This document shows positions 4,006 through 28,077 of a stretch of DNA of 32,000 nucleotides, one piece after another (position 1 is the stretch's first letter; the number at the start of each line of letters is the position of its first letter). The notes beneath the pieces were generated by a model. The model saw nothing but the letters and a program-made list of their open reading frames with translations, ran no database searches and was not told the origin of the DNA. The DNA is taken from positions 360,001 through 392,000 of the forward strand of contig CP001848.1 of the NCBI GenBank assembly GCA_000025185.1, in the 5' to 3' direction. Made by a program: the position numbers and the translations under genes. This DNA is from Pirellula staleyi DSM 6068 (GTDB taxonomy: Bacteria; Planctomycetota; Planctomycetia; Pirellulales; Pirellulaceae).

Positions 4006-4007
4006 TA

Positions 4008-4200
4008 GAACCCATTTCAGAACCTTTTGACGCAGATAAGTGCACAGGTGAGGTGTAGGAACGTCTGATAGAGATGGCCGTAACATTCGTGGCGTACGAT
4101 GATGCGGGGGAAGTTGCCGGGCCAGCCGATTGTGCGTTCGATGATCCAGCGGTTGCTGTAGCGACACAGCTTGCGGCCATCCTGCGTGGCTGGTAACGCA
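4008..4200 (-). mobile_element. remnant (3' end only) of a second, different IS5-superfamily element
   Basis: The last ~58 codons of ORF 4017-4340 read ..RKLCRYSNRWIIERTIGWPGNFPRIIVRHECYGHLYQTFLHLTCALICVKRF*. This is the conserved C-terminal block of DDE_Tnp_1-type transposases (compare RRWVVERTFGWLSRFRRLARDYERL in the other IS). The upstream part shows no transposase similarity. Boundaries are approximate. Confidence 0.5.
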
Positions 4201-4726
4201 GTTGAAAACCGCAGACAAGGTAAACATGAAACGTGCACCCTAAGCCGTGTCCGTCTAACGACGGGGGTTTCACGGAAAGGGAAACCTTGCCTAAAGCAGC
4301 GAAGGTTACTCCGTCTTCGGTAGCTGAGCGGTTTCGGCAATGACCTTCTGCATTAAGTATTCCGATACGGTGTATCGCTTTAGTTGATTCATAAAGTCGC
4401 TGTGAAACTGTTCCGGGACATGATCGAAGCTCTGCACATCGATGTTGCACCGCTGCCTTGAACCGCCTTGCGCAGTTCGTCGCAGCGCCAGAACGGGCAG
4501 CTATGAAGGTTACCGCAGAGGAACCAGTGACTGAACGGATCAAGCAGCAGATGGATGAAGTGCAGTGCGAAAAGCCGCAACGGGCAGCGGGTTGGGCAAG
4601 GTAGCTCCCCACGCGGCCTCCTTGCAGTCCGTTTTCATCACGGCAACAATGTGCACGCGGTTTGCGGCAATCGGTATTGCCTCCGTTTTCCAGATACGCC
4701 GCTTACCATTCAGATGTGAGTTCAGC

Positions 4727-7147: not shown

Positions 7148-7149
7148 TA

Positions 7150-8145
7150 CGGACTCTTCCTAACTTGACTTCGCACGGGCCCGTTGTGCGTCTCGGCCAT
7201 CCGACGACGCCTCCCATAGAAAGTTCTTGACGAGGGCAATCGTCCGCGATAGGTTCGGCTCACGCATGGGCAATTCTGCCCGGTGAAGTATGGAGAGCCG
7301 GGCTGGAATCGGCTAGACACTGATGGGCCTATCTGGATAGAAGAACCGAACACGCTAAACGGTTTAGTTTCGTCGTCGAAGCGGACCTTCTCAAGAAAGA
7401 AGTAAAGCCCGATTGGACGGGGTTCCATGCGGATAACGTCGGCAATCGATCGGCTTTTTAGCCTCCGGCGAGTAGCTTCCGAGTTATAGCCTCTACCCCC
7501 CACGATAGCCTGCGGTCGGCGATGTCGCCGATGCATGCTGAGTTCGCAATTCGCAATCAGCTTTTCGAACTCGGTCGACTCGTGACTTTGACCAGCGGTC
7601 GCCGTGACACCGAGCACAATTCCATTGCCATCGGTGAGCAAGTGCAGTTTGGTAAAATAGCCTCCGCGCGAGTAGCCAATCGCATTTAAATCGTCGTTCT
7701 CTGGGCTTTTTGACAGCATTCCCGAAGCACATCGATGGGCCCGCACGACACTGCCGTCGATGCACCAGCGCTGTCGGCTGATCTTGCCTCGGGTGTCGAG
7801 CAACTTCAGTGGTACGCGATTGATCGAGTCCCATAATCCACTGCAGGTCCAGCGCCGGAAGCGGTTGTAAGCTGTCTGCCACTTGCCTAGTTCCGCTGGC
7901 ATATCCCGCCACGGGGCACCTGTTTTGAGAACCCACAGGATGGCATTGATGGTCGTGCGATGATCAGCCCAGGGGCGTCCGGGATGGCCTGTTTTCGCCT
8001 TGGGCGAGCAGAGGTCGTATTGCGTTAAACTCTCGATCCGTGAGAAGATGTCGCAGCATTTGGCATCCCTGTTTGAGTCACCGTGGTAAGTAACTCAGGC
8101 AGGTTGCCAAATGCCCTTTTCAAAGGTCAATTAAGAGACAGCGCC
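7150..8145 (-). mobile_element. third IS5-superfamily element (DUF4096 + DDE transposase), frameshifted and decayed
   Basis: On the minus strand the start at 8058 gives MLRHLLTDREFNAIRPLL. A frameshift follows, then ..GRPWADHRTTINAILWVLKTGAPWRDMPAELGKWQTAYNRFRRW..DGSVVRAH..GYSRGGYFTKLHLLTDGNG..TAGQSHES..GGRGYNS. The C-terminal third has lost similarity. A terminal sequence CTGTCTCTTAATTGACC (complement of 8125-8141) has a degenerate partner GACTCTTCCTAACTTGAC at ~7152-7169. Ends are approximate. Confidence 0.6.
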
Positions 8146-8187
8146 TAGTCTGCTTCTGCCATAACCGCCTCTAAAGATTTAATACCC

Positions 8188-9849
8188 ATGCCTGACTCAA
8201 ATCGATCATTTTCATCACGGCACTTTCCGTATCGGAAACACGATCGCAATATCGCAGCTGATGCGGCAACGGCAGGGCTGGAATCTTCCGACGCTCCCCA
8301 GGTTCCAGCTCTAGTACCGAGGACTGTCTATCGTTTCGTTCTTGGGCAGGATCTGCGTCCAATCGCAATGAACGCAAACGACATTGGTGTATGGCTCAGA
8401 GATCCGTTTGGAAAGTTTGTTATCTCGCAAGGCCGGTTCCCTCTGACACTGCGGAAGCTACTGGAACAATTTGATAAAGCGGAGAGTCGACTAGACGAGC
8501 AGCAAAATTTTGTAGTTGCTGATGGTGGGCAGATTTTGTGGAACGCAGAGACGGAGTTCGTGGAGCGGAGCATGCGGTTCGCAATCACTCGCTTTAACGC
8601 TCAAGGCGACAGCGTATTGATCAGCACTGCGGTCCCTTTCGATTCAGAGAGCCAGTTTTTACAGCTTCTTGCATGGGACGCAAGTAATGAAGTTTTCAAC
8701 TACTACGAGCGCCGTAACGGCACTTGGATTTGGGCGGGCAACTCATATCACGCGTTGCGAGAACCCACGAGAGGTAAAGGACCGTTCGATAGCCACGTTA
8801 ACGGTTCGTTGGTAATGAAGGAGTTGAAATTTCCCTGGATGCACTGGCACAGTATGGCATCGATCATTTCGGATGACGTATTGGCCCCAAGCGATCTATT
8901 GCGAACCGATCCGATCTGGCGATCAAAGCTTGGTGCCGATGACTTCGAAATAGCGGTGGTAAGGCCTGGAATACGTAAATGGACAGAGGCCAGAACGAAA
9001 AAATTCGTCAGGGATCACTCGTCCGAAAATGCTTCCAATGCACGCGAAATACTCCGCCATCTGTTCGAAACAACCACCGTCAACTTAATCGCCTCGGGTG
9101 AACAAAGTCGCTCGATTACCGACCAGTCGTCCGTGAAGCTTCCGATCACGTTCTTTCTGAATTCTGACGTTCTGTTCGATTTGCTCGAACTTGAGCCCGA
9201 AATTGTGGTCCCGTCGGTTGCAGGGGAGTTTTATCGCGAAAGCCTTCGTACATTTGAATTCAAGCTACAGACGAATAACTTCGAGCAACCCGGCGATACG
9301 CATTTCGCTTTCATCGTTCCCGAAGCCGCCTTTGAGGACAATCTGGTAGTTGCCGAGTTGTTGAAGCAATCTGTGGTCTCAGCACGATTCGTTGCCTGCG
9401 TATTGATGGTTGATTTTGCAAATCCCATCTCCTCTTCAAGTCGCGAACTTTTACTCAAGTATATTCCTGACCGAATGGCTATACGTGATGGCGTCCTCGA
9501 CCTAGAGGCACAGTTCATAGCAAATGTTGAGGCCGCTATCAGTGAAACCGATGAATCGGATCCTGCATCGCCGGAACAGCAGTTCTTAAGCCATTGGAAC
9601 TTGGGAGACGCCTGGAAGCAGGCATTTGAGTCTCGAGTCGAAGCTTATTTTCAAGCAATCCAGCAACGTCTAGGCACTCAGCATGGGTACGATGATTACA
9701 TCAGGCTAGCCGAATCACGTCGACGCGAGTTTCGAAGGCGTCCCCTTTCTGAGTTCGATCTCACCCTTCCAGTCACCAACATCCCAGCCGATGCACCTCT
9801 GCTTCAAATGTTTGAAGATGGACGTGTCGGAATCAAGCAAGGAACCTAG
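8188..9849 (+). CDS. hypothetical protein (553 aa), first gene of the six-gene operon
   Basis: A long uninterrupted ORF with no competing ORF. It stops 3 nt before the next start. I recognise no catalytic or targeting motif. A distinctive segment is FLQLLAWDASNEVFNYYERRNGTWIWAGNSYHALREPTRGKGPFDSHVNGSLVMKELKFPWMHWHS. The start is uncertain; the alternative is the ATG at 8367 (MNANDIG..). Confidence 0.7.
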   Translation: MPDSNRSFSSRHFPYRKHDRNIAADAATAGLESSDAPQVPALVPRTVYRFVLGQDLRPIAMNANDIGVWLRDPFGKFVISQGRFPLTLRKLLEQFDKAESRLDEQQNFVVADGGQILWNAETEFVERSMRFAITRFNAQGDSVLISTAVPFDSESQFLQLLAWDASNEVFNYYERRNGTWIWAGNSYHALREPTRGKGPFDSHVNGSLVMKELKFPWMHWHSMASIISDDVLAPSDLLRTDPIWRSKLGADDFEIAVVRPGIRKWTEARTKKFVRDHSSENASNAREILRHLFETTTVNLIASGEQSRSITDQSSVKLPITFFLNSDVLFDLLELEPEIVVPSVAGEFYRESLRTFEFKLQTNNFEQPGDTHFAFIVPEAAFEDNLVVAELLKQSVVSARFVACVLMVDFANPISSSSRELLLKYIPDRMAIRDGVLDLEAQFIANVEAAISETDESDPASPEQQFLSHWNLGDAWKQAFESRVEAYFQAIQQRLGTQHGYDDYIRLAESRRREFRRRPLSEFDLTLPVTNIPADAPLLQMFEDGRVGIKQGT

Positions 9850-9852
9850 AAC

Positions 9853-10992
9853 ATGGCACTCTCCCATTTTGACCCGCCGGCATTCCTGGATGACTTCACT
9901 CAGGAACAAAAGGACGCTTGGAGCGAATGGATTTCCCAACAGATCGATGCCGCGATCGCTGGTGATCCTAACGGCTTGGAGTTCGACGCGCCTCGCGCCC
10001 AGTTCTTCAATGCGACGAAAGTAGACTTTGCCGCCGATATGGCAACGCTGGATATCGAATGGACCGCCTTTCCTCGAAACGTTCAGATCAGTTCGATCAG
10101 CGATCGCCAACGCTGGCGTCGTGCGGAAAGCAGTAGGGATCTGCAGGACGAGTACTGCGAATGGAGCGTTGAACGAGATCCGAACACGGAAAAGATTACG
10201 CGTGTCACCTTCACTTGCGAAGGCCCAGAGTACTGGCAGTTTCTCGCTGCTACATCGCCACAGAAAGTGCTTGAACTATACAAGCAGTTCGTTAGCCAGT
10301 CAGTTCAGTTAAGCGACCTGTTTTCTACGAACGGACGCTACAATCCCCGCAACGTTTGGAATAATTCATCGACTAATGGCGCGATGCATTTGATCCAACC
10401 AAACAATACGCTTGGAGCCGAGATTGAGCTTGCTGGTGGATCGAGCGTTGTACGATCGATCAATGGTCAATTGTTAACTGGCGAACGCGAATTGATCGAT
10501 TGCGGCAAGTACGGTGGCCGCGAACGGCACAGCGACCCACGGATTGGCTCCGAAGTAAACAGCCTAACGCGGCAAAAGGCTGACGTAACGTTGGCCAATC
10601 CGGTTGGCCTGTATTTTTCAAAGCTGATTACCGCTGGCTGGGAAGTTCCCAATGGTGAGGATGCTCAGAATTTCTGGAAGTATGTTCGAGGCACGGCAAG
10701 TCATCCAGTCCGCGCCGTCTTTGAAGTGCCATCTGATCGTGGTTTCGTCGTGGGAGATATCAAGATTGATGGCCGTGATATCGAGTTCGGAGCGCAGATT
10801 GCGGACAAGATCAAAATAAAGCTCATCGGCGTAGCTCACAAGTTCGGTCAAAACGCCGTAGCCCCGATGACTGGCTGTCGGCGCGTAAGGCAGCAAGTGT
10901 CGGAATCGATCGAGGCCGTTGTTCTTCAGAAAAAGCCAACCGTATCCAGCATACTGAGTCTACGGGCGGTGACTGCGCCTGCGCGGCATTAG
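9853..10992 (+). CDS. hypothetical protein (379 aa), second gene of the operon
   Basis: The ORF begins 3 nt after the previous stop. I recognise no motif. Distinctive segments are LQDEYCEWSVERDPNTEKITRVTFTCEGPEYWQFL and NGAMHLIQPNNTLGAEIELAGG. There is no signal peptide or TM segment. Confidence 0.7.
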   Translation: MALSHFDPPAFLDDFTQEQKDAWSEWISQQIDAAIAGDPNGLEFDAPRAQFFNATKVDFAADMATLDIEWTAFPRNVQISSISDRQRWRRAESSRDLQDEYCEWSVERDPNTEKITRVTFTCEGPEYWQFLAATSPQKVLELYKQFVSQSVQLSDLFSTNGRYNPRNVWNNSSTNGAMHLIQPNNTLGAEIELAGGSSVVRSINGQLLTGERELIDCGKYGGRERHSDPRIGSEVNSLTRQKADVTLANPVGLYFSKLITAGWEVPNGEDAQNFWKYVRGTASHPVRAVFEVPSDRGFVVGDIKIDGRDIEFGAQIADKIKIKLIGVAHKFGQNAVAPMTGCRRVRQQVSESIEAVVLQKKPTVSSILSLRAVTAPARH

Positions 10993-11031
10993 TAATGAAA
11001 GCTCTATACCCAAACCAAACGGAGAATCCCT

Positions 11032-12195
11032 ATGGCCTATTTGACTCAGGATCAGATTCACGAGATTCATTCTCAGGCAGTGAACCGAACACCGGGACTA
11101 CTTGACGCGTGGAAACAAATGTTGATTGGTCTTCCAATCGCATATATGAGCACACTTCCGAACATTGATGGAAACAAGAACCTTGGATTGCTTGCCCAGT
11201 TGAGCACAATGAATGAGGTTGATGTCATCAAAGGTGGAGTAGTTCCTCTTGAAGTTTGGTTAAACAACGCTGCGTACTTTTCTGAGCTCTTTCCTGATAG
11301 CCAAAAACTGTACCGCGACTACGCGCGAGTCATATTGGAGAAGCGTGCTATTACGAAAAGAAACGCTACGAGCTCTTTTGATCAAACGGTGAATGCACCA
11401 TCACTGAAAGGCATGTCCGAAGTTAAGGAACGCATAATCTTCATCAATGAGATGGTTCCGTACGGTTTTGCACAAGGGGCTGTGCGAACGGGGCAGTCGG
11501 TCGCTCGCCTCATCGTTCCAAGGTTCGATGGGAAGCAACCCCGGAAACTACCCTTTACCGACGAGCAGATAAAGTACTTTGGCACGGGCTGGCTATTAGG
11601 GACTCGTCACATTGTTACGAATCATCATGTCATCAATGCAAGAGACGCTGGCGAAGCAGATGCGATTTCTGAGGACTTCAACCTTCAAGGTATTAAGACG
11701 ACCGTGCAGTTTGATTACAACCAACGGAACGCGGCCGGTGACCCGCGAAGTGTTAAGCAGGTCTCCGGGTACAACAAAGAACTTGATTATGCTGTTCTTG
11801 AACTTGAGGCTCCATCAGGGCGCGAGCCGCTTCCCGTTTTTGGAGGGCAATTTGTCCTGCCAGCTCAGTCACTTTTTCCGGTGAACTTGATCCAGCATCC
11901 AGGAGGTGAGCCAAAGAAGCTAGGTATTCGCAGCAATCTTGTGGCGGCCGTAAACGAGGTGAATCTTGCCTATTTCACAGATACCGAACCTGGTTCCTCG
12001 GGTTCTCCTGTTTGCTCGGACGATTGGTATGTACTCGCATTGCACAAAGCTTCATCTGCGTCCTATGGGGAGTTCGAGTACCAAGGCAAGCAAACGGCTT
12101 GGGTAAATCATGGAACGCGAATTGACGTTATCCTCGCAGACTTAAAGCAAAACCACTCGACTTTGTGGAATCTTATCGGCGCTAATGTGGTTTAG
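11032..12195 (+). CDS. trypsin-fold (S1-type) serine protease with N-terminal ~95-aa helical adaptor-like domain
   Basis: The catalytic triad is intact: His in GTRHIVTNHHV (H199), Asp in ELDYAVLEL (D252), Ser in TDTEPGSSGSPV (S323, nt ~11998). A GGAG lies 8 nt upstream of the ATG. N-terminal aa 4-97 are homologous to the C-terminus of the next protein. Confidence 0.9.
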   Translation: MAYLTQDQIHEIHSQAVNRTPGLLDAWKQMLIGLPIAYMSTLPNIDGNKNLGLLAQLSTMNEVDVIKGGVVPLEVWLNNAAYFSELFPDSQKLYRDYARVILEKRAITKRNATSSFDQTVNAPSLKGMSEVKERIIFINEMVPYGFAQGAVRTGQSVARLIVPRFDGKQPRKLPFTDEQIKYFGTGWLLGTRHIVTNHHVINARDAGEADAISEDFNLQGIKTTVQFDYNQRNAAGDPRSVKQVSGYNKELDYAVLELEAPSGREPLPVFGGQFVLPAQSLFPVNLIQHPGGEPKKLGIRSNLVAAVNEVNLAYFTDTEPGSSGSPVCSDDWYVLALHKASSASYGEFEYQGKQTAWVNHGTRIDVILADLKQNHSTLWNLIGANVV

Positions 12196-12206
12196 GAGGT
12201 TCTGCT

Positions 12207-13412
12207 GTGGCCATTATTATCCCGGAGATACGAGAGCTGGAATCAATTGTTCACCAGATGCGGCCGGCCTTGCGTGTTTCGAAAAATAGATTTGAACGCT
12301 CGCCAATCGGCTGGGAAGAACTGGACGCACATCGAGAATCGATCGAACGAGCCCTCCAGGCAACTGGGCGACTCGAATCGGACGATCCGTCGGTGCCCTA
12401 TTTTGGTACAGCATTTCTCGTTGGTGACGGAATAGCCCTAACCACACGTCATGTTGTGGAGTTGTTTGCGAATGGGCATGGCGAAACAGATCTAAACATC
12501 AAACGCCACCGCAAAGTATGGATTAATTTCAATGCCGAAACAGAAGGCGACACTAGCGAAGTTGCCTATGTGACCGGCATTGAATTCATTCATCCTTACT
12601 GGGATGTTGCGGCGATTCGGGTAGAAACATCGCGGGGTGGACTTGTACTTGAGTCCGCTCCTTCCACCGCGAATACTAATATAACGGTAATCGGTTACCC
12701 AGCTTTGGACATGCGGTCTGACTTAGACATCCAGCTAAGGATCTTTGAATCCGTATTCAACGTCAAACGCTTGCTCCCAGGAAGACTAGGTGGCGAAGAA
12801 TTGATTGAGTCCTACGGCAACAACGTGCTGGCGCTAACCCATGATGCTTCCACTTTAGGCGGTACTGCTGGCGCTCCGGTTATTGACATACGATCTGGCC
12901 ATGTCGTGGGAATTAACTTTGCAGGCGTATATCTGAAAGCTAACTACGCGGTCCCGTCATGGAAATTGATGCAAGATTCACGAGTTAGACGGCATCTTGG
13001 CTTTCTAGAGCCACCATGGATGAACCTTTGGGAAAAGCCTATTCAACCACTTAACTTGAAAGAGAATCCGGCGTGGACCGTAATTTCTGGGCAGGCAATT
13101 AGGAATCATGAGGCCTACCTTACCCACGATCAAGTCTTGGATCTTTGCCGACTTTTGGTAGGTGCCTTTCCTACAGATGAAAGCATTGCATCGCTGTTTC
13201 TGGGCATTGCTCCAGAAATCGTCGCCTCGCTACCTAGCGGTAACAATCCGAAGGAGAAATTGCTAAATCGACTTCAAGCGTTAAATAACATCGGTCGCAT
13301 CATAGGTGGTCAGTCACCGCTGCAATTGATATTGAAAACGGCAGCATTGCTAAGGGAGTCGTTTCCAGACGAACAGATCTTGCAGCAGTACCTAGCAATT
13401 GTAAGTAAATAA
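12207..13412 (+). CDS. trypsin-fold pseudoprotease (nucleophile Ser replaced by Ala) with C-terminal adaptor-like domain
   Basis: GTG start with a strong AGGAGG 8 nt upstream. His is retained (ALTTRHVVE, H82) and Asp is retained (YWDVAAIRVE, D133). The GxSGxP motif reads GGTAGAP, with Ala221 encoded by GCT at 12867-12869. C-terminal aa 305-401 match the N-terminal module of the preceding protease. Confidence 0.88.
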   Translation: MAIIIPEIRELESIVHQMRPALRVSKNRFERSPIGWEELDAHRESIERALQATGRLESDDPSVPYFGTAFLVGDGIALTTRHVVELFANGHGETDLNIKRHRKVWINFNAETEGDTSEVAYVTGIEFIHPYWDVAAIRVETSRGGLVLESAPSTANTNITVIGYPALDMRSDLDIQLRIFESVFNVKRLLPGRLGGEELIESYGNNVLALTHDASTLGGTAGAPVIDIRSGHVVGINFAGVYLKANYAVPSWKLMQDSRVRRHLGFLEPPWMNLWEKPIQPLNLKENPAWTVISGQAIRNHEAYLTHDQVLDLCRLLVGAFPTDESIASLFLGIAPEIVASLPSGNNPKEKLLNRLQALNNIGRIIGGQSPLQLILKTAALLRESFPDEQILQQYLAIVSK

Positions 13413-13478
13413 TCATTGTCACTCCTAGTCAACCAAGATAGCTCATTTACAAGACTCAGTCACGGAATCTGAAGGTTT

Positions 13479-15398
13479 ATGCCAAGACTCTTGCAACAAA
13501 AACATCGGCTTCACAAGATACTTATCGAATGCAAACTAGGGGATTCGGTTGATTTGCTCGTTTCATCAATCAACTCAAGCGTTCGTGCCCAATTGCCAAA
13601 TGAAGATATCCCAGCAAAGCGATTGCTGGGGATAATTGATTTCCTATGCGAGTATGATCTGCCAAAAAACAGCGCAGACCCCCTGGTTCAATTTCTGCAA
13701 CGAGTCGTTCACCTCTTGGATCAGTATCCAGACCAATGTGAAGAGGTCAAAGTGTTTTTATTGAGCCTTTCGACAAGAGATACTGAACTCAATAATACGC
13801 AACACGATTCGTCAACGGACAACGCACCCGCTGGGCATCATCCTGCTATTGGCGTTCTCGTCATCGCTACAACTCATGTGGAGCTCGACGCAATGAAGTC
13901 GAGTCTCAATGTTTCGGACCGCCTGTCGATTGGCACGTTGGAGTATTGGCACGGCACAGTCGGGGGGCTTGAAATTGCAGTCACGCAAAGTGTTCCGCCT
14001 GAGGGAATTGTGATTCTTCAGGAAACGCTTCAACCTTCTGCAGTAATCTATGTATGCCCAGTAATTTGTCTAAAGAAGCAACCTAAAGACCAAGCACATA
14101 CTATCCTTGCAAGTACTTTGCATGAGAATCCTAAGCAGGCCTCTCGGACTCGTTCGTTGCGACTGTGTGACGCAATGACATCGTACATGGCAAGAACTTT
14201 GCCGTCTGGGAGATACGCAAATGTAGTTGAGATTCTTGATATACCGCAATGGGAACAACTAAACCCCGCGGCGCTACAGCATGTAAAATTGTCGTTTGTT
14301 GTGGCCTCAGACAATTCGATTCTAAGTTTACTGAAGGAAATCGACTCACCTGTTGCTTTGCTTGGCTCGGTGGTATGGAGGCATGAGCCCCGATCTGAAA
14401 AAATACCAACACTGCAGGAAATCTTGGGCTCTGAAGCCCACCATATAGCGTCTGAAGCATCTGGCAGTATTTTGCATGAGATATTATCCACCGAGAGCTG
14501 TCCGTATAAGAACGCCGAACGGGTGCTATCGGTCGACAGTTCACATCCCGGAGCATTAGACGTTTGGATACGATCACCAAGCGACGCTGATGACGTCAAG
14601 CCGTTTGTGAATCGAGCTCAATTCCGGACTGATCTTGTTAGACTACTTCGTCCTGGCAATCCGCGAACTATGGTAGTCAGCGGTGAGGAGGGCTCGGGGA
14701 AATCATTTTTATTTGAGTTCCTTATGCACCTTCACATCACGAACGTTGTGCGGGCAAATATCATCCCAATACAGTTGCCGAAGGAGTCACGTCCTCCTGA
14801 ATGGACTTGGAGAAAGCTGATGCAACTCTTGTGTGAAGGGCTTAAAATTCAAAGATTGGCGATAGATGAGTTCCACGACCCAAGCGAGTTTGTGTCCCGA
14901 TATCTTGTGAGAACGATAAGCCCAAGCAGCAGCAAAAGTTTCGAGAGCATGCCGGCAAGACATCAAGCAAACATATTTGTCTTCGACGGTTTTGCGAGGC
15001 AAGGCTTTAGCCCTGATATTTATGACACCCTTCTCGCGCTGGAAGATGCTATTGCGAGTTGTGCCCTTCCGAACTTTCGATGTTTAGTTCTTGGTTGCAA
15101 TGCACATACTTTGTTGCGGGACAGCCCGTCGCGAATTGTGCGTACTTACAAGGTTGACGATGTTCCTGAGGCCGCAGATATAGATGGATTTATTGCGCAC
15201 TTTTCTCGTCAACATAACGTTGCACCAAGCCCAGAAGCTATACAGACTTTTCGCGAGACAATATCTTTTAACGTTGCTGCTGTAGATGAACGGCTCGGAG
15301 CTGCCGAGCGGCACATCCGAATGCTTAAGGTGAATTCAATTTTTCTGAGGGCATCACAGCTGCTCCTCGCTCAGTCAAGTACAATTGGAGGTGTATAG
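13479..15398 (+). CDS. P-loop NTPase with N-terminal adaptor-like domain and a possible degenerate nucleoside-phosphorylase-like middle domain
   Basis: Walker A GEEGSGKS is at nt 14682-14705 and the Walker-B-like NIFVFDGF follows. N-terminal aa ~5-95 share the LP..LL..PL..L..(Y/F)PDxQ pattern with both proteases. The segment AIGVLVIATTHVELDAMKSSL..EYWHGTVGGLEIAVTQS resembles the start of PNP_UDP-type phosphorylase folds, but the later glycine-rich motifs are not evident. Confidence 0.75.
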   Translation: MPRLLQQKHRLHKILIECKLGDSVDLLVSSINSSVRAQLPNEDIPAKRLLGIIDFLCEYDLPKNSADPLVQFLQRVVHLLDQYPDQCEEVKVFLLSLSTRDTELNNTQHDSSTDNAPAGHHPAIGVLVIATTHVELDAMKSSLNVSDRLSIGTLEYWHGTVGGLEIAVTQSVPPEGIVILQETLQPSAVIYVCPVICLKKQPKDQAHTILASTLHENPKQASRTRSLRLCDAMTSYMARTLPSGRYANVVEILDIPQWEQLNPAALQHVKLSFVVASDNSILSLLKEIDSPVALLGSVVWRHEPRSEKIPTLQEILGSEAHHIASEASGSILHEILSTESCPYKNAERVLSVDSSHPGALDVWIRSPSDADDVKPFVNRAQFRTDLVRLLRPGNPRTMVVSGEEGSGKSFLFEFLMHLHITNVVRANIIPIQLPKESRPPEWTWRKLMQLLCEGLKIQRLAIDEFHDPSEFVSRYLVRTISPSSSKSFESMPARHQANIFVFDGFARQGFSPDIYDTLLALEDAIASCALPNFRCLVLGCNAHTLLRDSPSRIVRTYKVDDVPEAADIDGFIAHFSRQHNVAPSPEAIQTFRETISFNVAAVDERLGAAERHIRMLKVNSIFLRASQLLLAQSSTIGGV

Positions 15399-15400
15399 TG

Positions 15401-18376
15401 ATGGCTAAAGTGGATCTGACTGTTGAACTTTTCGCCGACTCTGGCCGCCCTCGATCTCGTGGTCATTTTTTCGAGGCAGCTTCTTTACTTACAAGCTTTC
15501 TACCAGCGCAGCTTCGCGCAGCCGATGGCAGCTTAATCGATCGTCAATCGTTAGATATTCTAGCGCGTAATTGTGATACGACCGGTTCGGAATGGATACT
15601 TGACGATGCTGTTCGTCGCGACGAAATCCATGCCCTTGAGTCTCTAGAAGTGCCCATATCGATTTGGAAAAACAACGCGGAGAATTGTCCGGATGACCCG
15701 GTTCAAAAGATGCTTCAGCAGGTCGTGCGAGAATCTGTGAAAGTGGACGAATTGGATTCTACTCAGTTATCGTCTCTACTAAGAGTCCTTTCTTGGTTTG
15801 GTACCTCACTCATCAGCAAATCGCTTCGGCTGCCAAGTATTGATGAAGTCCGTGCAGAGTTCGGATATAAGACTTGGTGTGATCGTTTGACGCGCTACCG
15901 CACACCAGACTTCTTAGGTCGTGAACAAGAAATGGACGAACTCTATCGATTTATGGTTAGCCCACTTTCTTTTTCGGCAACTGTTTGGGGGGTTGGTGGG
16001 GTAGGTAAAACAGCCTTGCTCTCAAATTTTGTCCTTGAACACTGCTTGAATTCTGAAGCTCGAAGGCCATTTGCTTGGTTTGACTTTAACCGTAGTGACT
16101 TACTTAATGCGGAGTCACCAAATTCACTTCTTCTCGAGGCCGCTTCGCAACTGTCGCAACAGAGAATTGTCTCTGTAGGTACGCAATCGGAAATTGAAGA
16201 TTTCTGCAGAGACATGATCGATGGCCCAATCATTAGCCGCCAGCTACTCACGTCCCAGCAAATCATACGCTTTGGCAAAATTCTTCAGAGTTCTGGTACA
16301 TCAGGTATAGAGTATATATGGGTGCTTGATAGCTTGGAAGAACTTCTCGAAACTGCTCCAGGTTTCATTGACTATATCACAGCGTATCTCGAGGAGCTTC
16401 GCGAAATCATACCTCAGCTGCGGGTTTTCTTCGTTGGTCGTAGCCAGTACTTCGGAGATACGTCGGTTCGACGTGAGCTGCACCTCCAATGTCTTGAGCT
16501 TAGTCTTGCAAGGGAGTTCCTGGAAAGAGGCGGTGTTCCAGAAGCAGAATCTTTATTCATCGCGAATGCATGCGGAAAACACCCACTGCGATTATCGCTA
16601 GCGGCAAGCATTTATCGCCAAGCGATGAAGGATCGCCAAAGTGGTTCTCCATTTGAGCAATTGAGATTCCTGTCAACTACTTTACCGAAAGGCTCAGAAA
16701 AAACATTGTTTCTTCGGTTTCTTGAACATCTTCACGACGATGATATCAAGAGACTTGTAGCGCCGGGCTTCTTGGTGCGGAGAATAACACCACTGGTTAT
16801 CGAGAAGATACTAGCTGAGCCGTGTGGTCTTGAGGTTAGAAGTGCGGTTGAAGCGACCGCCGTTTTTCAAAAGCTGATTAGAGAAGTCTCACTAATCGAG
16901 TCTGTCGACGACGAGACTGCGGTGCTGCGGCGAGACGTGCGCAAGGAATTGTTGCCTCTTATTCGCAGTGCATTCAATCACGAAGCCAATGCCATCCATA
17001 CATCCGCTATAGAATTCTACCGTTTTCGTCGAAATGACGAATCAAGAGCAGAGGAAGTTTACCACCGTTTAATGATTGGAACTGATGCCAGAACATTAGA
17101 TCGATGCTGGCGACCATCGCTAGCTGAAAGACTGGTTGGTAGCATTGACGAAATGCCGTTTCGGTCGCAAGTTTACCTTGCTAGGAAAACGGGAAGAGGT
17201 ACTACGGTGCCAACGGATTATTTCTCTGATCGAGCGGACAATTTCGACTGGGAATGGAGAGTCGCAAGTCGTGCAAGATCATTGCTCGATCACGATGAAC
17301 CTGAGAAAGCGATCGCACTAGTGCGCGAGCGAGATTTTCGTAGCCCTACCAGTCCACTTTACGTCATTGAGTCTAGAGCTTTGCGACGACTAGGAAAACT
17401 GGCGGAGGGGCGTCGAATACTCGAGAATGCGGCCAACAAACTAGCTTCGCTTACCAATTTTGGAACGAATGCGGATAGAGGGCATGCTATCGAGTTGTTG
17501 CTTAGTTTCTTTTGGATAGAACTCGATTGTTCGGAATGCCTGTCGGCCCGCGAGACATTGGACGATCTTTGCAAGTTGATTGGCTTTAAGACCGATCTTA
17601 TCGAGGTTTGCAATAACGAAAAGCCAGTTTTGCATTTAGAAATATTGCTCCGTTCGATTGCCTTGAGTAAGAAATGTCCTCAGCAGTCGTCCGTGGTTGA
17701 TCGGGACCTCGCTTACCGCAAAGCGCACGAAATACTTAGCGATGAGGAGATATTGGAAGATCATGATTTTGAGGATTCGCCGAAGATGTTCCGTCGCTTG
17801 GCAGCGGAAGTATGTTGGAATGATGTAAAAGTTGTTTCCCGTGTCGTCAGGAATTCCGGTATCGGCACTCCCTACCCGTTGGCGTGTGAGGTTCTTGGTG
17901 AAGAGATTGCTAGGTGGTCGTCGGGGCGATTTGAATTGGAAACCCTCGGACCAATACCAGTCGATTGCAACAGGCCGAGTGTTTGGAAACATTGGTTTAT
18001 GCGAGCGTCTTCTTCTTCGATAAGCGATTCATTTTCACGATTAATTGAATCTAGAGAGCCTCCGCGAAAAGTCATGGAAGCTGTTCGCGACTTGCTCCTG
18101 TTGTCTGATGAAGGGCCTAGAACCGAAGGAGATATAGAATACCTAAAAGATATCGCAATGGCGCAAAACGAGCGTTTACAACTAAGAAAACACCTTCGCC
18201 ACTATGGACACTCACCTGAGAAGATTAGGCACCTTTTTAGTTCTGGCTTTGGTTTGAGTTCCTATGATGTAATCTCGAAAAACGAAATCGATGCTCCTGT
18301 ATTGATCCGCGAGATTGCCTCATGGAGCGTTCGGTTTGGCCTTGCCAACCGTTTGCTCGATTCAATCAATGAATGA
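15401..18376 (+). CDS. STAND-type (NACHT/NB-ARC-like) NTPase with C-terminal helical (TPR-like) repeats
   Basis: FLGREQEMDELYRF..VWGVGGVGKTALLSNF gives Walker A at nt 15989-16012, followed by Walker B YIWVLDSLEELLE. The C-terminal ~450 aa are helix-rich, for example AIEFYRFRRNDESRAEEVYHRLM and EKAIALVRERD..LGKLAEGRRILENAANKL. The start is the ATG at 15401 (or the GTG at 15398), abutting the previous stop at 15396-15398, with GGAGG at 15387-15391. Confidence 0.88.
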   Translation: MAKVDLTVELFADSGRPRSRGHFFEAASLLTSFLPAQLRAADGSLIDRQSLDILARNCDTTGSEWILDDAVRRDEIHALESLEVPISIWKNNAENCPDDPVQKMLQQVVRESVKVDELDSTQLSSLLRVLSWFGTSLISKSLRLPSIDEVRAEFGYKTWCDRLTRYRTPDFLGREQEMDELYRFMVSPLSFSATVWGVGGVGKTALLSNFVLEHCLNSEARRPFAWFDFNRSDLLNAESPNSLLLEAASQLSQQRIVSVGTQSEIEDFCRDMIDGPIISRQLLTSQQIIRFGKILQSSGTSGIEYIWVLDSLEELLETAPGFIDYITAYLEELREIIPQLRVFFVGRSQYFGDTSVRRELHLQCLELSLAREFLERGGVPEAESLFIANACGKHPLRLSLAASIYRQAMKDRQSGSPFEQLRFLSTTLPKGSEKTLFLRFLEHLHDDDIKRLVAPGFLVRRITPLVIEKILAEPCGLEVRSAVEATAVFQKLIREVSLIESVDDETAVLRRDVRKELLPLIRSAFNHEANAIHTSAIEFYRFRRNDESRAEEVYHRLMIGTDARTLDRCWRPSLAERLVGSIDEMPFRSQVYLARKTGRGTTVPTDYFSDRADNFDWEWRVASRARSLLDHDEPEKAIALVRERDFRSPTSPLYVIESRALRRLGKLAEGRRILENAANKLASLTNFGTNADRGHAIELLLSFFWIELDCSECLSARETLDDLCKLIGFKTDLIEVCNNEKPVLHLEILLRSIALSKKCPQQSSVVDRDLAYRKAHEILSDEEILEDHDFEDSPKMFRRLAAEVCWNDVKVVSRVVRNSGIGTPYPLACEVLGEEIARWSSGRFELETLGPIPVDCNRPSVWKHWFMRASSSSISDSFSRLIESREPPRKVMEAVRDLLLLSDEGPRTEGDIEYLKDIAMAQNERLQLRKHLRHYGHSPEKIRHLFSSGFGLSSYDVISKNEIDAPVLIREIASWSVRFGLANRLLDSINE

Positions 18377-18538: not shown

Positions 18539-19643
18539 TATGCGAGTTGCACCATTTTTGTACTCGTCCTTACTTTTGTCAGTCTCCCCGATCCGTTCGC
18601 GACGTGTGCTTGTGCTTGTGCTTGTGCTTGTGCTTGTGCTTGTGCGTTGGCCCAGTCATTGCATCTCGAACAAGGCTGGACTGCAGAGGAACGCGAGCGT
18701 TTTTACTTTACCGCACAGGGCTCTCAGTTGATTCCCTTTAAGTGGTTTCTTGAGCTTGAGCAGGTCGAAAGCGAAAAAAGCCCTTTCGCGACGTTCAGAA
18801 CATGCAACGATATGGATTCTTGCCAGCCCCTCGTGGCAAGCTAGATCCTGAAGGACTTCCCGTTGGCTTCGTTCGCGATGGCATCAATCCGGTGGCGAAT
18901 GAAGTTGCCGGGATTGAGTCAGTCCAACAAGCAGTGATCGCCGCTGCGACTCGGTTCGGGATCAAAAGAGCCTATTTGGGTTCGGAGTTTGACGAAAAAC
19001 TTTACCCGAATGAGCAGCAGGCATGGTTCGGTCTTACCTGTGCCGCATGCCATACGCACGAGATGGCATTCAACGGAAAGACTTTGCGGATCGATGGCGG
19101 GGCGTCACAAGCAGATGCCGAGTCCTTCCTGCGTGATCTGGGTGTTGCTTTGCAAGCGACTGTGGATAGTCCGGAAAAACTAAAACGATTCGCGAATGCA
19201 GTAGGACAAGGTGGACGTGACCTCGCCGAGTTCAAGAGCGAGGTCGGACAGATTGCAGACGCTGTCAACCGGCTAGTCGCACGCAACAAGTCCAAGCACC
19301 CTTACGGTTTCGCTCGCTTAGATGCCTTTGGAGCAATGCTCAACGCGGTTTGCGAGACCGCACTAAACATCCCAGAGAATCACCAGGAATCCAAGCGCCC
19401 GTCAGTTATCCCACGCTTTGGAACACGCCGCAGATGTCGTATGTGCAATTGAACGCATCTGCTGCGAACGCAGAAGGACGTAACGTAGGTGAGGTCCTCG
19501 GCGTCTTTGGAACGTACCCGCTCGAACCAGGGGAAAAGCAGTTTGACTCGACAGTTCGACTTCGAAATCTTGTTGTGCTTGAGCATGAACTGATTGCGAA
19601 ACTTCGCGCACCTGACTGGCCAGAAGACTTGTTTGGCAGACTA
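18539..19643 (+). pseudogene. haem-c (CXXCH) di-haem-peroxidase-like protein gene, frameshifted at least twice and 3'-truncated by an IS
   Basis: The homologous reading path jumps frames. It runs ..GWTAEERERFYFTAQGSQLIPFKWFLELEQ..SPFATFR in frame 2, then MQRYGFLPAPRGKLDPEGLPVGFVRDG..WFGLTCAACHTHEM (CXXCH at 19039-19053) in frame 1, then ..APVSYPTLWNTPQMSYVQLNASA..APDWPEDLFGR in frame 0. The last part runs straight into the IS end at 19644. A possible signal peptide MRVAPFLYSSLLLSVSP at 18539 lies in yet another frame. The family assignment rests on motif recall only. Confidence 0.6.
18606..18641. repeat. hexanucleotide microsatellite (GTGCTT)x6, followed by the variant GTGCGT
   Basis: Read directly from the sequence: gtgctt gtgctt gtgctt gtgctt gtgctt gtgctt gtgcgt. 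It encodes (VL)6, (CL)6 or (CA)6 depending on frame. Confidence 0.95.
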
Positions 19644-20494
19644 GAGCCTGTTATTGACTTATCTGCTTGCAATTGCTGTAGTTAGGGGATGAAACACACG
19701 ACAGGGAAGTCGTATCCCAGCGACGTAACGGATGCGGAGTGGGAATTCCTGCTCCCTTACTTAAGCCTCATGCGCGAGGATGTGCCGCAGCGTTCCTATT
19801 CACTGCGCGACCAGTTTAACGCCATGCGCTACGTGGTGAAAACAGGAATCCAGTGGGACTTCCTGCCGCATGAAATGCCTCCGTGGCGGGCCGTCTATCA
19901 ACAAATGCGACGCTGGTTCGAAGCGGGAGTCTTTGAGGAAATTGCGCAAGACCTCAGGCTGATGGTGCGTCTTTTGGAAGGACGTGACGAACAGCCAACC
20001 GCTGTGATCATGGATGCGCGGACACTCCAATCGACGCCTGAAAGTGGTGGCCGCGCGGGATACGACGGTGCGAAGAAAAAGAAGGGCCAATATTGCCGTC
20101 GATACACTGGGAAATCTGCTGGCGGTTTACATCACTGCAGCCAATGAGCAAGACCGCGACCAAGTCGCCATCCTCTCGCAGAGAGTGCAAGAGGTGACGG
20201 GCAGCAACGTGGAGATAGCGTACGTCGATCAAGGCTATACGGGCGCCGCAGCAGCCGAGCAGGCTGAAGCATCCTCGATAAGATTACAAGTTATAAAACA
20301 TACCGAGACCAAGCGAGGCTTTGTCCTATTGCCACGCCGCTGGGTTGTTGAGCGCACCTTTGGTTGGCTGAGTCGCTTCCGCCGTCTCGCGCGTGATTAT
20401 GAGAGACTCACCGTCACGCTCACCAACTTCCACTGGCTCGCCTTCCTCACCATACTCCTCGCAAAAATCTACAGACAAAGTCAATAACTGGCTC
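19644..20494 (+). mobile_element. IS5-superfamily insertion sequence, copy 2 (851 bp)
   Basis: Terminal IRs GAGCCTGTTATTGACTT (19644-19660) and AAGTCAATAACTGGCTC (20478-20494) are flanked by TA on both sides. Same element as 3155-4005 and 31529 onward. Confidence 0.92.
19689..20487 (+). pseudogene. IS5-family transposase split into two frames by an 8-nt deletion (orfA 19689-20147, orfB-frame 20014-20487)
   Basis: orfA has the DUF4096-type N-terminus (YPSDVTDAEWEFLLPYL..KTGIQWDFLPHEMPPWRAVYQQMRRW). The orfB frame has the DDE part (ANIAVDTLGNLL..YVDQGY..RRWVVERTFGWLSRFRRLARDYERL). Compared with copy 3, 8 nt are missing at 20086/20087, so the two halves sit in frames 0 and +1. Confidence 0.85.
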
Positions 20495-20613
20495 TAGCCA
20501 ATTTGCGCCAAAATAGGTCGTAGTGTAGGCCTGGCAGTAGAGAAATCAGAAAGTGAATCGCTGTTTCCGAGCAACTGCCCTTTGACCTCATTTGGGCCAT
20601 TCTGAGGTACGTA

Positions 20614-22583: not shown

Positions 22584-22890
22584 TTGTAATTGCTGATATT
22601 TCTACCGCCAAAACCGTGCCTTTCCCGCACCAGCGTGCTATGGATTGCAGCCTCAGAACTTGCTCTCTGTTCATCGGAATTAGAGGGAAGAAACGCACCG
22701 CCTCTCGCTGACAGTCCGGCTGCCATCGGGAGGTCGGTGATGCCAACAGGTTCTCAGTTGGTTTACCTCCAGCTTCTCTCCTTCGGCCCTGTGCGGTCGA
22801 GTCCCCGGTTGCCTTGTTGGGCATCCAGTGGCTCGGCTGCGTCAGCCGGGCGGTTTCTCACGTAACCGTGTTTCGAAAAGGAGAGTCATC

Positions 22891-23912: not shown

Positions 23913-23926
23913 AAGGCAGGCAAGCG

Positions 23927-24310: not shown

Positions 24311-24429
24311 GCATAGAAGGATTCACTAGGTCTTACGATATGTTGGAAAAGAACTTCTCATCAATCATGTTCTCGGATAGGATCTAGCAGAATGCTGTTC
24401 GGTGCTTTGGGTATAAAGGAAGCAAGACG

Positions 24430-28036: not shown

Positions 28037-28077
28037 TGCGAGGGGCTTTCAGCCCTTGATTCGCGATCGTTGCTTCC

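Follow-up and report, generated by a model that had tools for sequence, protein, structure and literature searches.

A six-gene locus of Pirellula staleyi probably combines an EAD5 trypsin/STAND NTPase cassette with a separately conserved DUF8225 protein pair

In this study, we have analyzed a block of six plus-strand open reading frames, p1 to p6 (Psta_0283 to Psta_0288), within a 32,000-nucleotide stretch of the Pirellula staleyi DSM 6068 genome (the window), and we conclude that this locus is, on balance, probably a composite of two separately conserved modules, p1-p2 and p3-p6. The p3-p6 module is a member of an already described type of conflict system, which is built around effector-associated domains (EADs), and p1 together with p2, a DUF8225 protein, is an undescribed module. 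A sequence-only reading had proposed a single undescribed system made up of all six genes; this proposal was not borne out, since the p3-p6 cassette occurred without p1 or p2 in all 80 metagenome loci sampled around p6-family genes and a p6-family NTPase was found in only 1 of 91 p1-p2 loci.

The description of the block as six tightly spaced genes on one strand was exact. The coordinates, strands and lengths were verified, and the intergenic gaps are 3, 39, 11, 66 and -1/+2 nt, of which the 39-nt gap between p2 and p3 separates the pair from the cassette; at the last junction, the p5 stop codon TAG (15396 to 15398) overlaps the p6 GTG at 15398, and the public record starts p6 at ATG 15401. 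A scan of the locus for promoters and terminators returned counts at or below shuffled expectation and was uninformative; therefore, it is the spacing alone that supports a single transcription unit. The block has a GC content of 0.46 to 0.52, compared with 0.53 to 0.58 in the left flank, and insertion sequence (IS) copies flank it on both sides, in agreement with the earlier impression of a lower-GC segment among IS elements. An 856-bp IS5-family element is present in three copies (3153 to 4008, minus strand; 19641 to 20496, plus strand; and 31526 to 31971), and the first two, each with a DDE transposase and inverted relative to one another (inverted repeat I1, 95% complementary), bracket the operon-bearing segment. 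A further IS4/IS5-family transposase remnant or element (7039 to approximately 8060, minus strand; Pfam DDE_Tnp_1 and DUF4096) ends approximately 130 nt upstream of the p1 start, at the site where the close relatives L001, L010 and L091 carry a Lipase_3 and S8 peptidase gene. This insertion may have altered expression. The locus bears the hallmarks of a conflict system, with an EAD on a P-loop NTPase and on two trypsin-fold proteins, a STAND NTPase whose C terminus is long and helical, and a setting in an IS-rich island of lower GC content.

The p3-p6 cassette and its relatives

The helical module common to p3, p4 and p5 is Pfam EAD5, an adaptor of the NTP-dependent conflict systems of Kaur, Aravind and colleagues, and it is terminal in each of the three proteins. 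In p3 (387 aa; 11032 to 12195, plus strand), EAD5 at residues 3 to 148 (E = 3.8e-43) is followed by a trypsin-like serine peptidase domain at residues 184 to 337 (Trypsin_2, 6.3e-17). The intact catalytic triad that had been noted in this protein is present as His198/199, Asp252 and Ser323, the last within GSSGSP; H199, D252 and S323 fall in columns conserved in a 46-sequence alignment, and p3 is predicted to be a catalytically intact PA-clan trypsin-like serine peptidase. The order is reversed in p4 (401 aa; 12207 to 13412, plus strand), where a trypsin fold at residues 67 to 236 (Trypsin_2, 3.7e-13) precedes a C-terminal EAD5 at residues 304 to 400 (8.8e-14). Its nucleophile is replaced, as had been reported, by Ala221 in GTAGAP (codon GCT); p4 fails the PA-clan triad and is a predicted pseudo-peptidase. 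Because the serine is retained in all of the other trypsins in a comparison of 45 complete ones and the replacement requires a single nucleotide change, the loss may be a recent defect.

The third EAD5 carrier, p5 (639 aa; 13479 to 15398, plus strand), consists of a divergent N-terminal EAD5 (residues 1 to approximately 100), a middle domain of approximately 230 aa and a P-loop NTPase, in which the Walker A sequence GEEGSGKS recognized earlier was located at residues 402 to 409 and the Walker B aspartate is Asp503. Its Pfam matches (AAA_22, 1.9e-5; NACHT, 0.0088) are both below the Pfam cut-offs, and a word-indexed homologue search returned only p5 itself. The start of the middle domain is faintly similar to MTA/SAH nucleosidases; a PNP/MTA-nucleosidase fold is no more than a lead, the match being marginal (46 residues; E = 0.045) and not visibly followed by the glycine-rich motif that is usual in such folds.

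The p6 protein (992 aa, or 991 aa from ATG 15401; 15398 to 18376, plus strand) is a STAND-type NTPase with a long helical C-terminal region, as had been claimed. It has the P-loop features of this class, namely, an FLGRE motif, Walker A (GVGGVGKT, residues 198 to 205) and Walker B (VLDSLEE, residues 309 to 315) motifs, a family-wide core and C-terminal repeats, and an alignment of 40 family members shows no variation at residues G198, G200, G201, G203, K204, D311 and E314. The family is large (1,941 cluster representatives at E ≤ 1e-3, of which 770 reach E ≤ 1e-30), and the only Pfam match to p6 is a subthreshold one to AAA_16 (6.6e-4). The helical C terminus is the presumed sensor.

The EAD5 regions of p3 and p4 are 32% identical (E = 1e-9). 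The p5 match is weaker than these: residues 9 to 98 gave a Pfam value of 0.023 when searched as a fragment, with a collinear match to an independent metagenome-derived hidden Markov model (HMM) at 2.3e-4 and local scores of 49 to 53, compared with 26 ± 4.5 for shuffled sequences. The earlier claim of a module of approximately 90 aa in four proteins therefore stands for p3, p4 and p5; for p6, the evidence is marginal, since residues 57 to 111 resemble p3 residues 43 to 99 (score 51, against 27.8 ± 4.7 for shuffles) but there is no Pfam match, the independent HMM gave 0.029 and profile-profile comparison (hhalign) gave a probability of 0.2%. The p6 C terminus and an upstream 860-aa NTPase were also tested as EAD5 carriers and rejected.

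Of the 80 metagenome neighborhoods sampled for the p6 family, 53 had enough upstream sequence to be assessed, and 42 of these had a gene encoding 250 to 760 aa directly upstream of the p6-family gene, most commonly with a 4-nt overlap at the junction. A canonical Walker A motif was present in 29 of the 42 small genes, and p5 is the positional equivalent of this small P-loop gene. A trypsin was encoded no more than three genes away in 45 of the 77 loci scored for this feature, and in a further 5 it formed part of the STAND protein itself as a fusion (50/77 in total). Adaptors are swapped between p6-family systems: 19 small NTPases and 21 trypsins carried EAD1, 14 trypsins carried EAD5 and one carried EAD11. 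Judged by these neighborhoods, p3-p6 is a recurrent EAD-trypsin/small P-loop/STAND cassette that is conserved independently of p1-p2.

No PADLOC or NCBIfam model classified the locus when p1 to p6 were scanned, and the PADLOC check proposed earlier thus matched none of the six proteins to a named system. The parallel that had been drawn with effector-associated-domain systems was the correct one. According to the EAD principle, an adaptor EAD is found at the termini of the NTPase core and of the effectors (Kaur, Burroughs, Iyer, Aravind; eLife 2020, PMC7159879; eLife 2021, PMC8195603). The P. staleyi locus resembles those systems in carrying EAD5 at the termini of the NTPase component (p5, with its weaker match) and of two trypsin-like peptidases encoded by adjacent genes, in its inactive peptidase paralogue, in its STAND NTPase with C-terminal repeats and in its bacterial host of complex lifestyle. 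Unlike them, it has no MoxR-vWA pair, VMAP, iSTAND, GAP1 or double-GTPase core; none of the 24 window ORFs scanned had a MoxR or vWA Pfam match, which sets the locus apart from the MoxR-vWA ternary systems (VMAP/iSTAND). Its core is instead a small P-loop NTPase with a p6-family STAND protein, joined to p1 and DUF8225, and this small P-loop/p6-family cassette was not found named in PADLOC or in those papers.

Like Avs/AVAST and bNACHT proteins, p6 joins a P-loop STAND NTPase to a helical C-terminal region, in p6 the presumed sensor, and some Avs types (Avs1b) have protease effectors; however, in P. staleyi the effector is on separate adaptor-linked polypeptides and there are two NTPase genes. 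The Avs1b model scored 9 to 10 bits against a cut-off of 1500 (E = 0.049 to 0.088), in the protease domain only; Pfam NACHT (PF05729) scored 16.3 bits in p5 against a cut-off of 26.7 and did not match p6; and the PADLOC nacht model matched only the p4 protease domain. The locus shares with bacterial gasdermin and CARD-linked protease-ATPase operons the coupling of proteases to an NTPase via a Death-like or EAD-type adaptor, with proteolytic effector activation proposed, but it has no gasdermin, and p1 and p2 had no PADLOC or PDB fold match.

The p1-DUF8225 pair

The p1 protein (553 aa; 8188 to 9849, plus strand) has a conserved N-terminal motif (consensus FPTRxYPYR; HFPYRK in P. staleyi) that precedes a variable, disordered linker and then a folded domain without a recognized fold. 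The annotated start, which yields 493 aa, is too short, because homologues span 100% of the 553-aa ORF; 673 homologues were obtained at E ≤ 1e-3 from 8,000 candidates scored, and p1 itself matched nothing in Pfam, PADLOC or NCBIfam. The second member, p2 (379 aa; 9853 to 10992, plus strand), has the invariant motifs QDEYCEW, EGPEYW, MHLIQ and CGxYGG..RHSDP and 1,267 homologues, all of those listed carrying PF26676; its assignment to DUF8225 (PF26676) is by proxy, from precomputed matches in 120 of 120 listed homologues, including some that are 88 to 91% identical to it. AlphaFold2 models had pLDDT values of 84.3 (p1) and 92.6 (p2). Foldseek searches of both models against the PDB and of p2 against BFVD gave no match with E below 0.5, nor did PDB sequence-profile searches with either protein, and a phage-genome search with p2 gave no match. 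Literature searches for DUF8225/PF26676 and Psta_0283 to Psta_0288 found no mention of them, and the same names are absent from a Kaur et al. supplement.

The pair was found in approximately 490 species and on 38 plasmids. The p1 gene lies directly upstream of p2 in 79 of 80 genome loci, the two are sometimes fused, and in 27 of 66 scored loci (approximately 40%) they have no same-strand neighbor. Mean column identity across phyla is 54% for p1 and 66% for p2, and this conservation is far above that of typical defence effectors. By gene order and alignment, p1 and p2 are a widespread, separately conserved and fixed two-protein unit with no literature of its own. One outcome anticipated as unfavorable to a single system, that the two upstream proteins would be ordinary enzymes with independent conserved neighborhoods, was realized in part: the neighborhoods are independent, but the proteins are not ordinary known enzymes, and what they usually adjoin is again a peptidase or another domain of the effector type.

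Where neighbors exist, the pair habitually adjoins or is fused with peptidases and other effector-type enzymes. Peptidases from seven families make up 22 of 95 operonic neighbors, where only a few per cent would generally be expected, and enrichment is judged on this count; a seed-based census of neighbors, which had no neutral control, placed one or more peptidases within 10 kb of the pair in 30 of 80 loci. The adjoining peptidases are of unrelated families with differing specificities, so that a single conserved cleavage site seems less likely. Fusions of DUF8225 to PLD occur in three loci, and one locus (L012) has a fusion with trypsin, EEP and NucA; the closest p1 relatives have NucA/Lipase_3/S8 polyproteins immediately upstream; Endonuclease_NS (NucA) is present in the relatives' loci L008, L012, L038 and L089; and EAD1-trypsins and STAND NTPases also occur near relatives of the pair. 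Oxidative enzymes recur as well: LodA with a LodB-like flavoprotein in 9 of 80 loci, GMC oxidoreductase in 7 of 80, a PvdP-like tyrosinase that follows the pair in relatives (E = 2.9e-24 to PDB 6eys), RoxA/MauG-like dihaem cytochromes, galactose-oxidase-like proteins and haem peroxidase.

These contexts recall the NucA-trypsin "System 3" of Kaur et al. 2020, which a section of that paper (PMC7159879) proposes to act via a proteolytic cascade. The similarity lies in the p2 relatives that are fused to trypsin, EEP and NucA or are found beside trypsin-NucA proteins, NucA-Lipase_3-S8 proteins, EAD1-trypsins and STAND NTPases; in contrast, the window contains no NucA (Endonuclease_NS) or other nuclease domain detectable by Pfam, and the p1-DUF8225 pair is not mentioned in that section's description of System 3.

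Relationship between the two modules

Recurrence of the six-gene synteny was only partly confirmed, in that p1-p2 and p6-type NTPases were joined in a single other locus, L001, and both modules were found together in only 2 of approximately 170 sampled loci. L001 has the order p1, p2, peptidase, P-loop NTPase and p6-type STAND, and its trypsin-like domain is fused straight to the p5-like P-loop protein, which is followed by a full-length p6 homologue (28% identity). The EAD model predicts just such a direct fusion in place of the adaptor of P. staleyi. The L001 p1 and p2 proteins are 87% and 89% identical to those of P. staleyi; its NTPases are only 25 to 28% identical to their P. staleyi counterparts and its peptidase is of a different family (S8), and the two halves therefore have different histories. 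In a third planctomycete locus (L010), an nSTAND1 NTPase and a trypsin lie downstream of p1-p2.

The first alternative to a composite locus is that p1 and p2 are a non-defence two-subunit enzyme, for instance an oxidase or dehydrogenase that contains a metal or a protein-derived cofactor and depends on proteolytic and oxidative maturation, and that they lie beside the EAD5 cassette by chance. The very high conservation and invariant Cys/His/Trp/Tyr motifs are in keeping with such an enzyme, as are the solitary pairs, the IS-rich setting and the recurrent neighbors that oxidize side chains or make H2O2 (LodA with LodB-like flavoprotein, GMC oxidoreductase and PvdP-like tyrosinase). There is a precedent in quinohaemoprotein amine dehydrogenase, whose maturation employs an S8 peptidase and a flavoprotein. 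We nevertheless consider this explanation unlikely, because the DUF8225 fusions, the NucA/lipase/S8 polyproteins and the EAD1-trypsins are typical of conflict effectors and not of maturation factors, the pair again adjoins NTPases in L001, and no cofactor-binding fold was recognized by Foldseek or by PDB profile searches.

Somewhat less probable again is a single integrated system that evolved as a unit, with p1 and p2 as dedicated killing effectors of the STAND/protease machinery. The 3- to 66-nt spacing, with just 39 nt between p2 and p3, the gene order of L001 and the NTPase and trypsin of L010 would all be expected of such a system; however, the absence of p1 and p2 from the 80 p6-family loci, the single p6-family gene among 91 pair loci and the unequal divergence of the L001 components count against it. 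The least credible account is that of a locus in decay that has ceased to work as a system. In its favor, the IS end stands where relatives carry the Lipase_3 and S8 gene, p4 has lost its serine by a unique single-base change and no close homologue of p5 could be detected; against it, each of the six ORFs is intact and, compared with its homologues, of full length, and the catalytic or Walker motifs of p3, p5 and p6 are preserved.

Proposed mechanism and significance

For the composite locus, we infer a sequence of sensing, EAD-EAD binding, protease activation, p1/p2 cleavage and a defence phenotype. The helical C terminus of p6 would detect an invader-derived cue, and p6 would switch or oligomerize upon NTP binding. 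It would work with p5 (the two genes overlap at the p5 stop codon), and p5 would recruit p3 and p4 through homotypic EAD5 contacts, p3 then being turned on by induced proximity. The p4 protein could be a noncatalytic regulator or substrate-binding cofactor, or merely a recently inactivated paralogue. The p1-p2 pair may be a target of the p3 protease; p1 and p2 would most likely supply its downstream effector or substrate, for example, if the conserved peptide at the p1 N terminus is cut off, and infected cells would be expected to stop growing or die. The close spacing, with 39 nt between the modules, and the position of the conserved p1 motif ahead of a disordered linker favor this model. Several observations weigh against this model: adjacency of the modules in an IS-rich island may be fortuitous, given 2 of approximately 170 loci; the pair is often alone and is highly conserved; and the p5 EAD5 is weak by Pfam.

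A broader and decidedly speculative proposal, which we think improbable as a whole, is that p1 and DUF8225 form an undescribed "constant component" of new fold, a latent effector and possibly a pro-oxidase, present on conjugative plasmids too. It would be activated by many protease families, would be able to replace or to be combined with effectors of the nuclease, PLD, lipase, LodA and tyrosinase types, and in P. staleyi would have come under the control of an NLR-like STAND sensor and of a serine protease/pseudo-protease pair assembled by an adaptor. In the arthropod prophenoloxidase cascade, active serine proteases and catalytically dead homologues act upstream of an oxidase zymogen. If the proposal is true, P. 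staleyi would have an arrangement that follows the logic of that cascade in a bacterium. The comparison is by analogy only and implies no homology: it draws on the active/dead protease pair and on the relatives in which a PvdP-like tyrosinase follows p1-p2; in contrast, the window has no tyrosinase gene, and the oxidase idea for p1 and p2 is conjectural.

In conclusion, the EAD-trypsin/small P-loop/p6-family STAND cassette is common in soil and sediment metagenomes and is missed by PADLOC and NCBIfam. Because their homologous cores use EAD1, EAD5, EAD11 or direct fusion, p6-family cassettes offer a clean test of the proposed EAD principle. The context of p1 and DUF8225 marks either a new conflict-system effector or core or a new cofactor enzyme; P. 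staleyi and L001 are the only loci found in which a sensor-protease machine lies directly beside the pair, and they are therefore a natural entry point to its function.

Composition and setting of the locus

The best-supported interpretation of the six-gene block p1 to p6 is that it is a composite of two modules. Module B, comprising a trypsin (p3), a trypsin with a Ser-to-Ala replacement (p4), a P-loop NTPase (p5) and a STAND NTPase (p6), is best read as an NTPase-gated trypsin cassette assembled through effector-associated domain 5 (EAD5), and would be an added member of a published class; module A, comprising p1 and p2, is best read as an undescribed constant pair.

The six open reading frames, the first of which (p1) is the 553-aa Psta_0283 of Pirellula staleyi DSM 6068, lie on the forward strand (8188-18376); p1 to p5 are spaced by 3, 39, 11 and 66 nt, and the TAG of p5 (the 639-aa Psta_0287) shares one base with the GTG of p6. 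It is this spacing that suggests a single transcription unit, since a promoter and terminator scan of the window performed no better than on shuffled sequence. The lower GC content remarked on in the sequence-only reading was borne out (0.46 to 0.52 in the block versus 0.53 to 0.58 on the left side), as were the insertion sequences on both sides; the surrounding island is rich in such elements. An IS4/5-type transposase gene on the reverse strand (7039 to approximately 8060) ends approximately 130 nt 5' of the p1 start, and an 856-bp IS5-family element forms an inverted pair around the operon, with its left member (copy 1) on the reverse strand at 3153-4008 and its right member (copy 2) on the forward strand at 19641-20496. 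A third copy of the 856-bp element lies on the forward strand (31526-31971), and the three copies share 95 to 99% identity; the inverted pair encloses 15.6 kb, including the operon, in a composite-transposon-like layout, and a direct pair encloses the segment from 20.5 to 31.5 kb. Genes for a DUF932 protein, a Rep-like protein (28078-29439) and a large serine recombinase (29003-31105) all fall within 22828-31105, which looks like an integrated mobile element. The GC content dips to 0.44 to 0.46 at 24 to 27 kb, where orphan ORFs are located. A separate, defence-like gene on the forward strand (4565-7147) encodes an 860-aa protein with a PD-(D/E)xK-like N terminus (IDYEF...LILEAKS) and a P-loop (GRIGHGKS); it matched the NCBIfam Sll1717-family ATPase model (E = 1.9e-5) and, weakly, AAA_16 and nSTAND5, and its 3' end overlaps the insertion sequence at 7039-7902.

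The protease-NTPase cassette

The helical module originally proposed for four of these proteins is Pfam EAD5. It is N-terminal in p3 (3.8e-43) and C-terminal in p4 (8.8e-14), in each case adjoining Trypsin_2, and a divergent copy forms the N terminus of p5: Pfam matched a fragment (E = 0.023), an HMM built from metagenomic EAD5-trypsins only gave a collinear match over residues 13 to 98 (2.3e-4), and local alignment scores against the p3 and p4 domains exceeded those of all 500 shuffles. For p6 the evidence is contradictory; residues 57 to 111 resemble residues 43 to 99 of p3 (score of 51 versus 27.8 +/- 4.7 for shuffles), but there was no Pfam match, the independent HMM gave 0.029, and a comparison of family profiles with hhalign returned a 0.2% probability. 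The proposal therefore holds for p3, p4 and p5 and reduces to pairwise likeness for p6, and we count three EAD5 carriers rather than four.

The catalytic motifs were as first read. The His/Asp/Ser triad of p3 is intact, with Ser323 in GSSGSP, and the p4 nucleophile is replaced by Ala221 in GTAGAP, whose GCT codon is a single base from a Ser codon. p5 carries Walker A (GEEGSGKS) and also Walker B (Asp503), and p6 has the STAND motifs FLGRE..., GVGGVGKT and VLDSLEE, with Walker residues that do not vary among the 40 members of a family alignment. Between the EAD5 and P-loop domains of p5 is a region of approximately 230 aa, the first 46 residues of which bear a faint likeness to the beginning of MTA/SAH nucleosidases (E = 0.045), no more than a lead.

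Kaur et al. (PMC7159879) defined EADs as small adaptors at protein termini: one copy belongs to a core component of NTPase type, and others belong to effector or signalling enzymes encoded by adjacent genes. Homotypic binding between the copies is proposed, and inactive trypsin domains are among the features noted. A 2021 follow-up (PMC8195603) extends the "EAD principle" to STAND NTPases whose partners include trypsin, caspase and TIR. With a terminal adaptor, an NTPase component and an inactive trypsin, p3 to p6 fit this EAD-coupled conflict class in their domain content, a parallel that had been drawn from the sequence and that the EAD5 domains of p3, p4 and p5 support. The components of the named MoxR-vWA, GAP1 and NucA cores had no Pfam match in the window, so p3 to p6 stand outside these systems. 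They reached neither Avs, bNACHT nor any other PADLOC or NCBIfam model, and the PADLOC check of the whole operon likewise matched no model.

An exhaustive phmmer search for p6 relatives returned 1941 cluster representatives, of which 770 had E <= 1e-30 and approximately 30% identity. ORFs were called in a sample of 80 metagenome loci. Where at least 1.3 kb of upstream sequence was available (53 loci), a same-strand gene of 250 to 760 aa directly preceded the STAND gene in 42, most commonly with a 4-nt overlap, and 29 of these 42 small genes had a canonical Walker A. A trypsin-like gene lay within three genes of the STAND gene in 45 of 77 loci and was fused to it in 5 more. By Pfam, EAD1 is carried by 19/42 small NTPases and by 21 trypsins, EAD5 by another 14 trypsins and EAD11 by a single one; where an EAD5-trypsin lay downstream of the STAND gene, the HMM found no second EAD5 on other ORFs. 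All 43 complete trypsins kept the triad, and in this comparison p4 is the only Ser-less member. No relative of p1 or p2 was found in the 80 loci. Because the trypsin-small NTPase-STAND cassette recurs in these loci with EAD1, EAD5 or EAD11 and without p1 or p2, module B is self-sufficient, with an exchangeable adaptor. We found no name for it in PADLOC, NCBIfam or the available parts of PMC7159879 and PMC8195603.

The p1-DUF8225 pair and its neighbours

The first two genes had been regarded as orphans lacking a known motif. For p1 this stands, in that no family matched in Pfam, PADLOC or NCBIfam, and neither protein has a known fold in the PDB; however, they form a widespread conserved pair, and p2 homologues carry PF26676 (DUF8225). 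There were 673 p1 homologues among 8000 candidates scored and 1267 p2 homologues, with an unusually high mean column identity across phyla (54% and 66%, respectively). The AlphaFold models are confident (pLDDT of 84.3 for p1 and 92.6 for p2); neither matched the PDB, the p2 model had no match in BFVD, and neither sequence profile reached a PDB entry. Among GTDB species, each represented by a single genome, 492 had a DUF8225 relative; these were mainly Streptomyces, Kitasatospora, Bradyrhizobium, Pseudonocardiales, Myxococcota, Acidobacteriota and Planctomycetota, with some Nitrospira and Flavobacterium. DUF8225 was present on 38 plasmids (23 conjugative) and in no phage genome. Of 80 loci fetched, 79 had a p1 homologue directly upstream of p2, and p1-p2 fusions occur. 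In p1 a conserved motif (consensus FPTRxYPYR) is followed by a variable, low-confidence linker and a folded domain. Since homologues align along all 553 aa, including this motif in the unannotated part (8188-8367), the annotated start of Psta_0283 (493 aa) is 60 codons too late.

No same-strand neighbour lay within 300 bp of the pair in 27/66 loci, mostly from Streptomyces. At the remaining loci, peptidases of seven families made up 22 of 95 operonic neighbours (S8, 6; caspase, 4; astacin, 3; trypsin, 3; M10, 3; S41, 2; M20, 1); others included metallo-beta-lactamase fold, DUF2278-LTD, galactose/glyoxal-oxidase-like, haem peroxidase, tyrosinase, GMC oxidoreductase, Endonuclease I, Lipase_3 and EAD1 proteins. 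By clustering and seed searches within 10 kb of the pair in 80 loci, at least one peptidase was present in 30 (S8 in 13, trypsin in 8, astacin in 6 and M4 in 6), a GMC oxidoreductase in 7, and LodA-like lysine-oxidase and LodB-like flavoprotein gene pairs in 7 to 9 (L018:4593-7688 and 8 further loci, e.g., L011, L012, L051 and L054 to L056). RoxA/MauG-like dihaem cytochromes were also recurrent. DUF8225 is fused to tandem PLD domains in proteins of 829 to 923 aa (L065:9782-12550, L072:10001-12541 and L078:10004-12490) and to Trypsin_2, EEP and Endonuclease_NS in a 1390-aa protein (L012:9959-14131). Plasmid copies of the PLD fusion are annotated merely as "phospholipase D-like".

In the closest relatives of the window's pair (L001, L010, L089 and L091), a Lipase_3 and S8 protein, which in L089 also bears NucA, is encoded directly upstream of p1, a position occupied by an insertion sequence in the window. 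Directly after p2, planctomycete and anammox-type loci encode a protein of approximately 350 aa (L009:11179-12228, L010:7806-8879, L089:6978-8027 and L091:7852-8073) that lacks a Pfam match and is homologous to the pyoverdine tyrosinase PvdP (PDB 6eys, E = 2.9e-24); the copies are 69 to 70% identical to one another, and the gene is absent from the window. Between the tyrosinase-like and caspase genes of L089, a 128-aa ORF (8079-8462) has faint similarity to TIR, ThsB-TIR and nucleoside deoxyribosyltransferase domains (E = 0.01 to 0.1).

Joining of the modules and the role of the pair

The p6-family HMM had one match among 91 p1-p2 loci, in the metagenome-assembled genome locus L001, and phmmer with p5 and p6 found none in L009 to L088. 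L001 encodes, in order, the Lipase_3/S8 protein, p1, p2, an S8 peptidase and proteins of 473 and 986 aa. Its p1 and p2 are the closest relatives of those in the window (87% and 89% identical), its 986-aa protein is a full-length p6 homologue (28% identity), and in its 473-aa protein, which has no EAD, a trypsin-like domain is joined straight to a p5-like P-loop domain. L001 thus builds by direct fusion the same functional set that P. staleyi builds with an adaptor, as the EAD model predicts. In L010 (Pirellulaceae), the pair is followed by genes for another kind of STAND protein (nSTAND1) and for a trypsin. The junction is therefore recurrent but rare, with nonorthologous parts, and divergence from L001 of 87 to 89% identity for the pair versus 25 to 28% for the other half shows that the modules lack one common history. 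Of the proposed six-gene synteny, the junction with a p6-family gene was seen again in L001 but was absent from the 80 p6-family loci and the other 90 p1-p2 loci. The proposal of an undescribed conflict system is partly supported: the locus is conflict related and unclassified by PADLOC and NCBIfam, but it is not a single new six-gene system, since module B recurs without p1 and p2.

By analogy with the published systems, we envision that p6 would sense a cue and cooperate with p5, that EAD5 contacts would recruit and activate p3, and that p4 may modulate p3. It is plausible that p1-p2 is a downstream substrate or effector of the protease in this locus, given its frequent adjacency or fusion to peptidases and classic effector domains, the conserved N-terminal peptide of p1 on a flexible linker, and its joining to a sensor-protease machine in two genomes. 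The main alternative is that the pair is a conserved two-subunit enzyme, perhaps redox active with a metal or protein-derived cofactor, in which case the adjacency would be incidental; its high conservation, invariant Cys/His/Trp/Tyr motifs and oxidase-rich neighbourhoods suggest this explanation. These views are compatible: oxidases of the LodA type are effectors that kill cells, so a pro-oxidase activated by a protease would fit either view, an identity that we consider rather unlikely for p1-p2. Half of the locus, module B, belongs to a described class; the pair of p1 and DUF8225 is its more interesting object.
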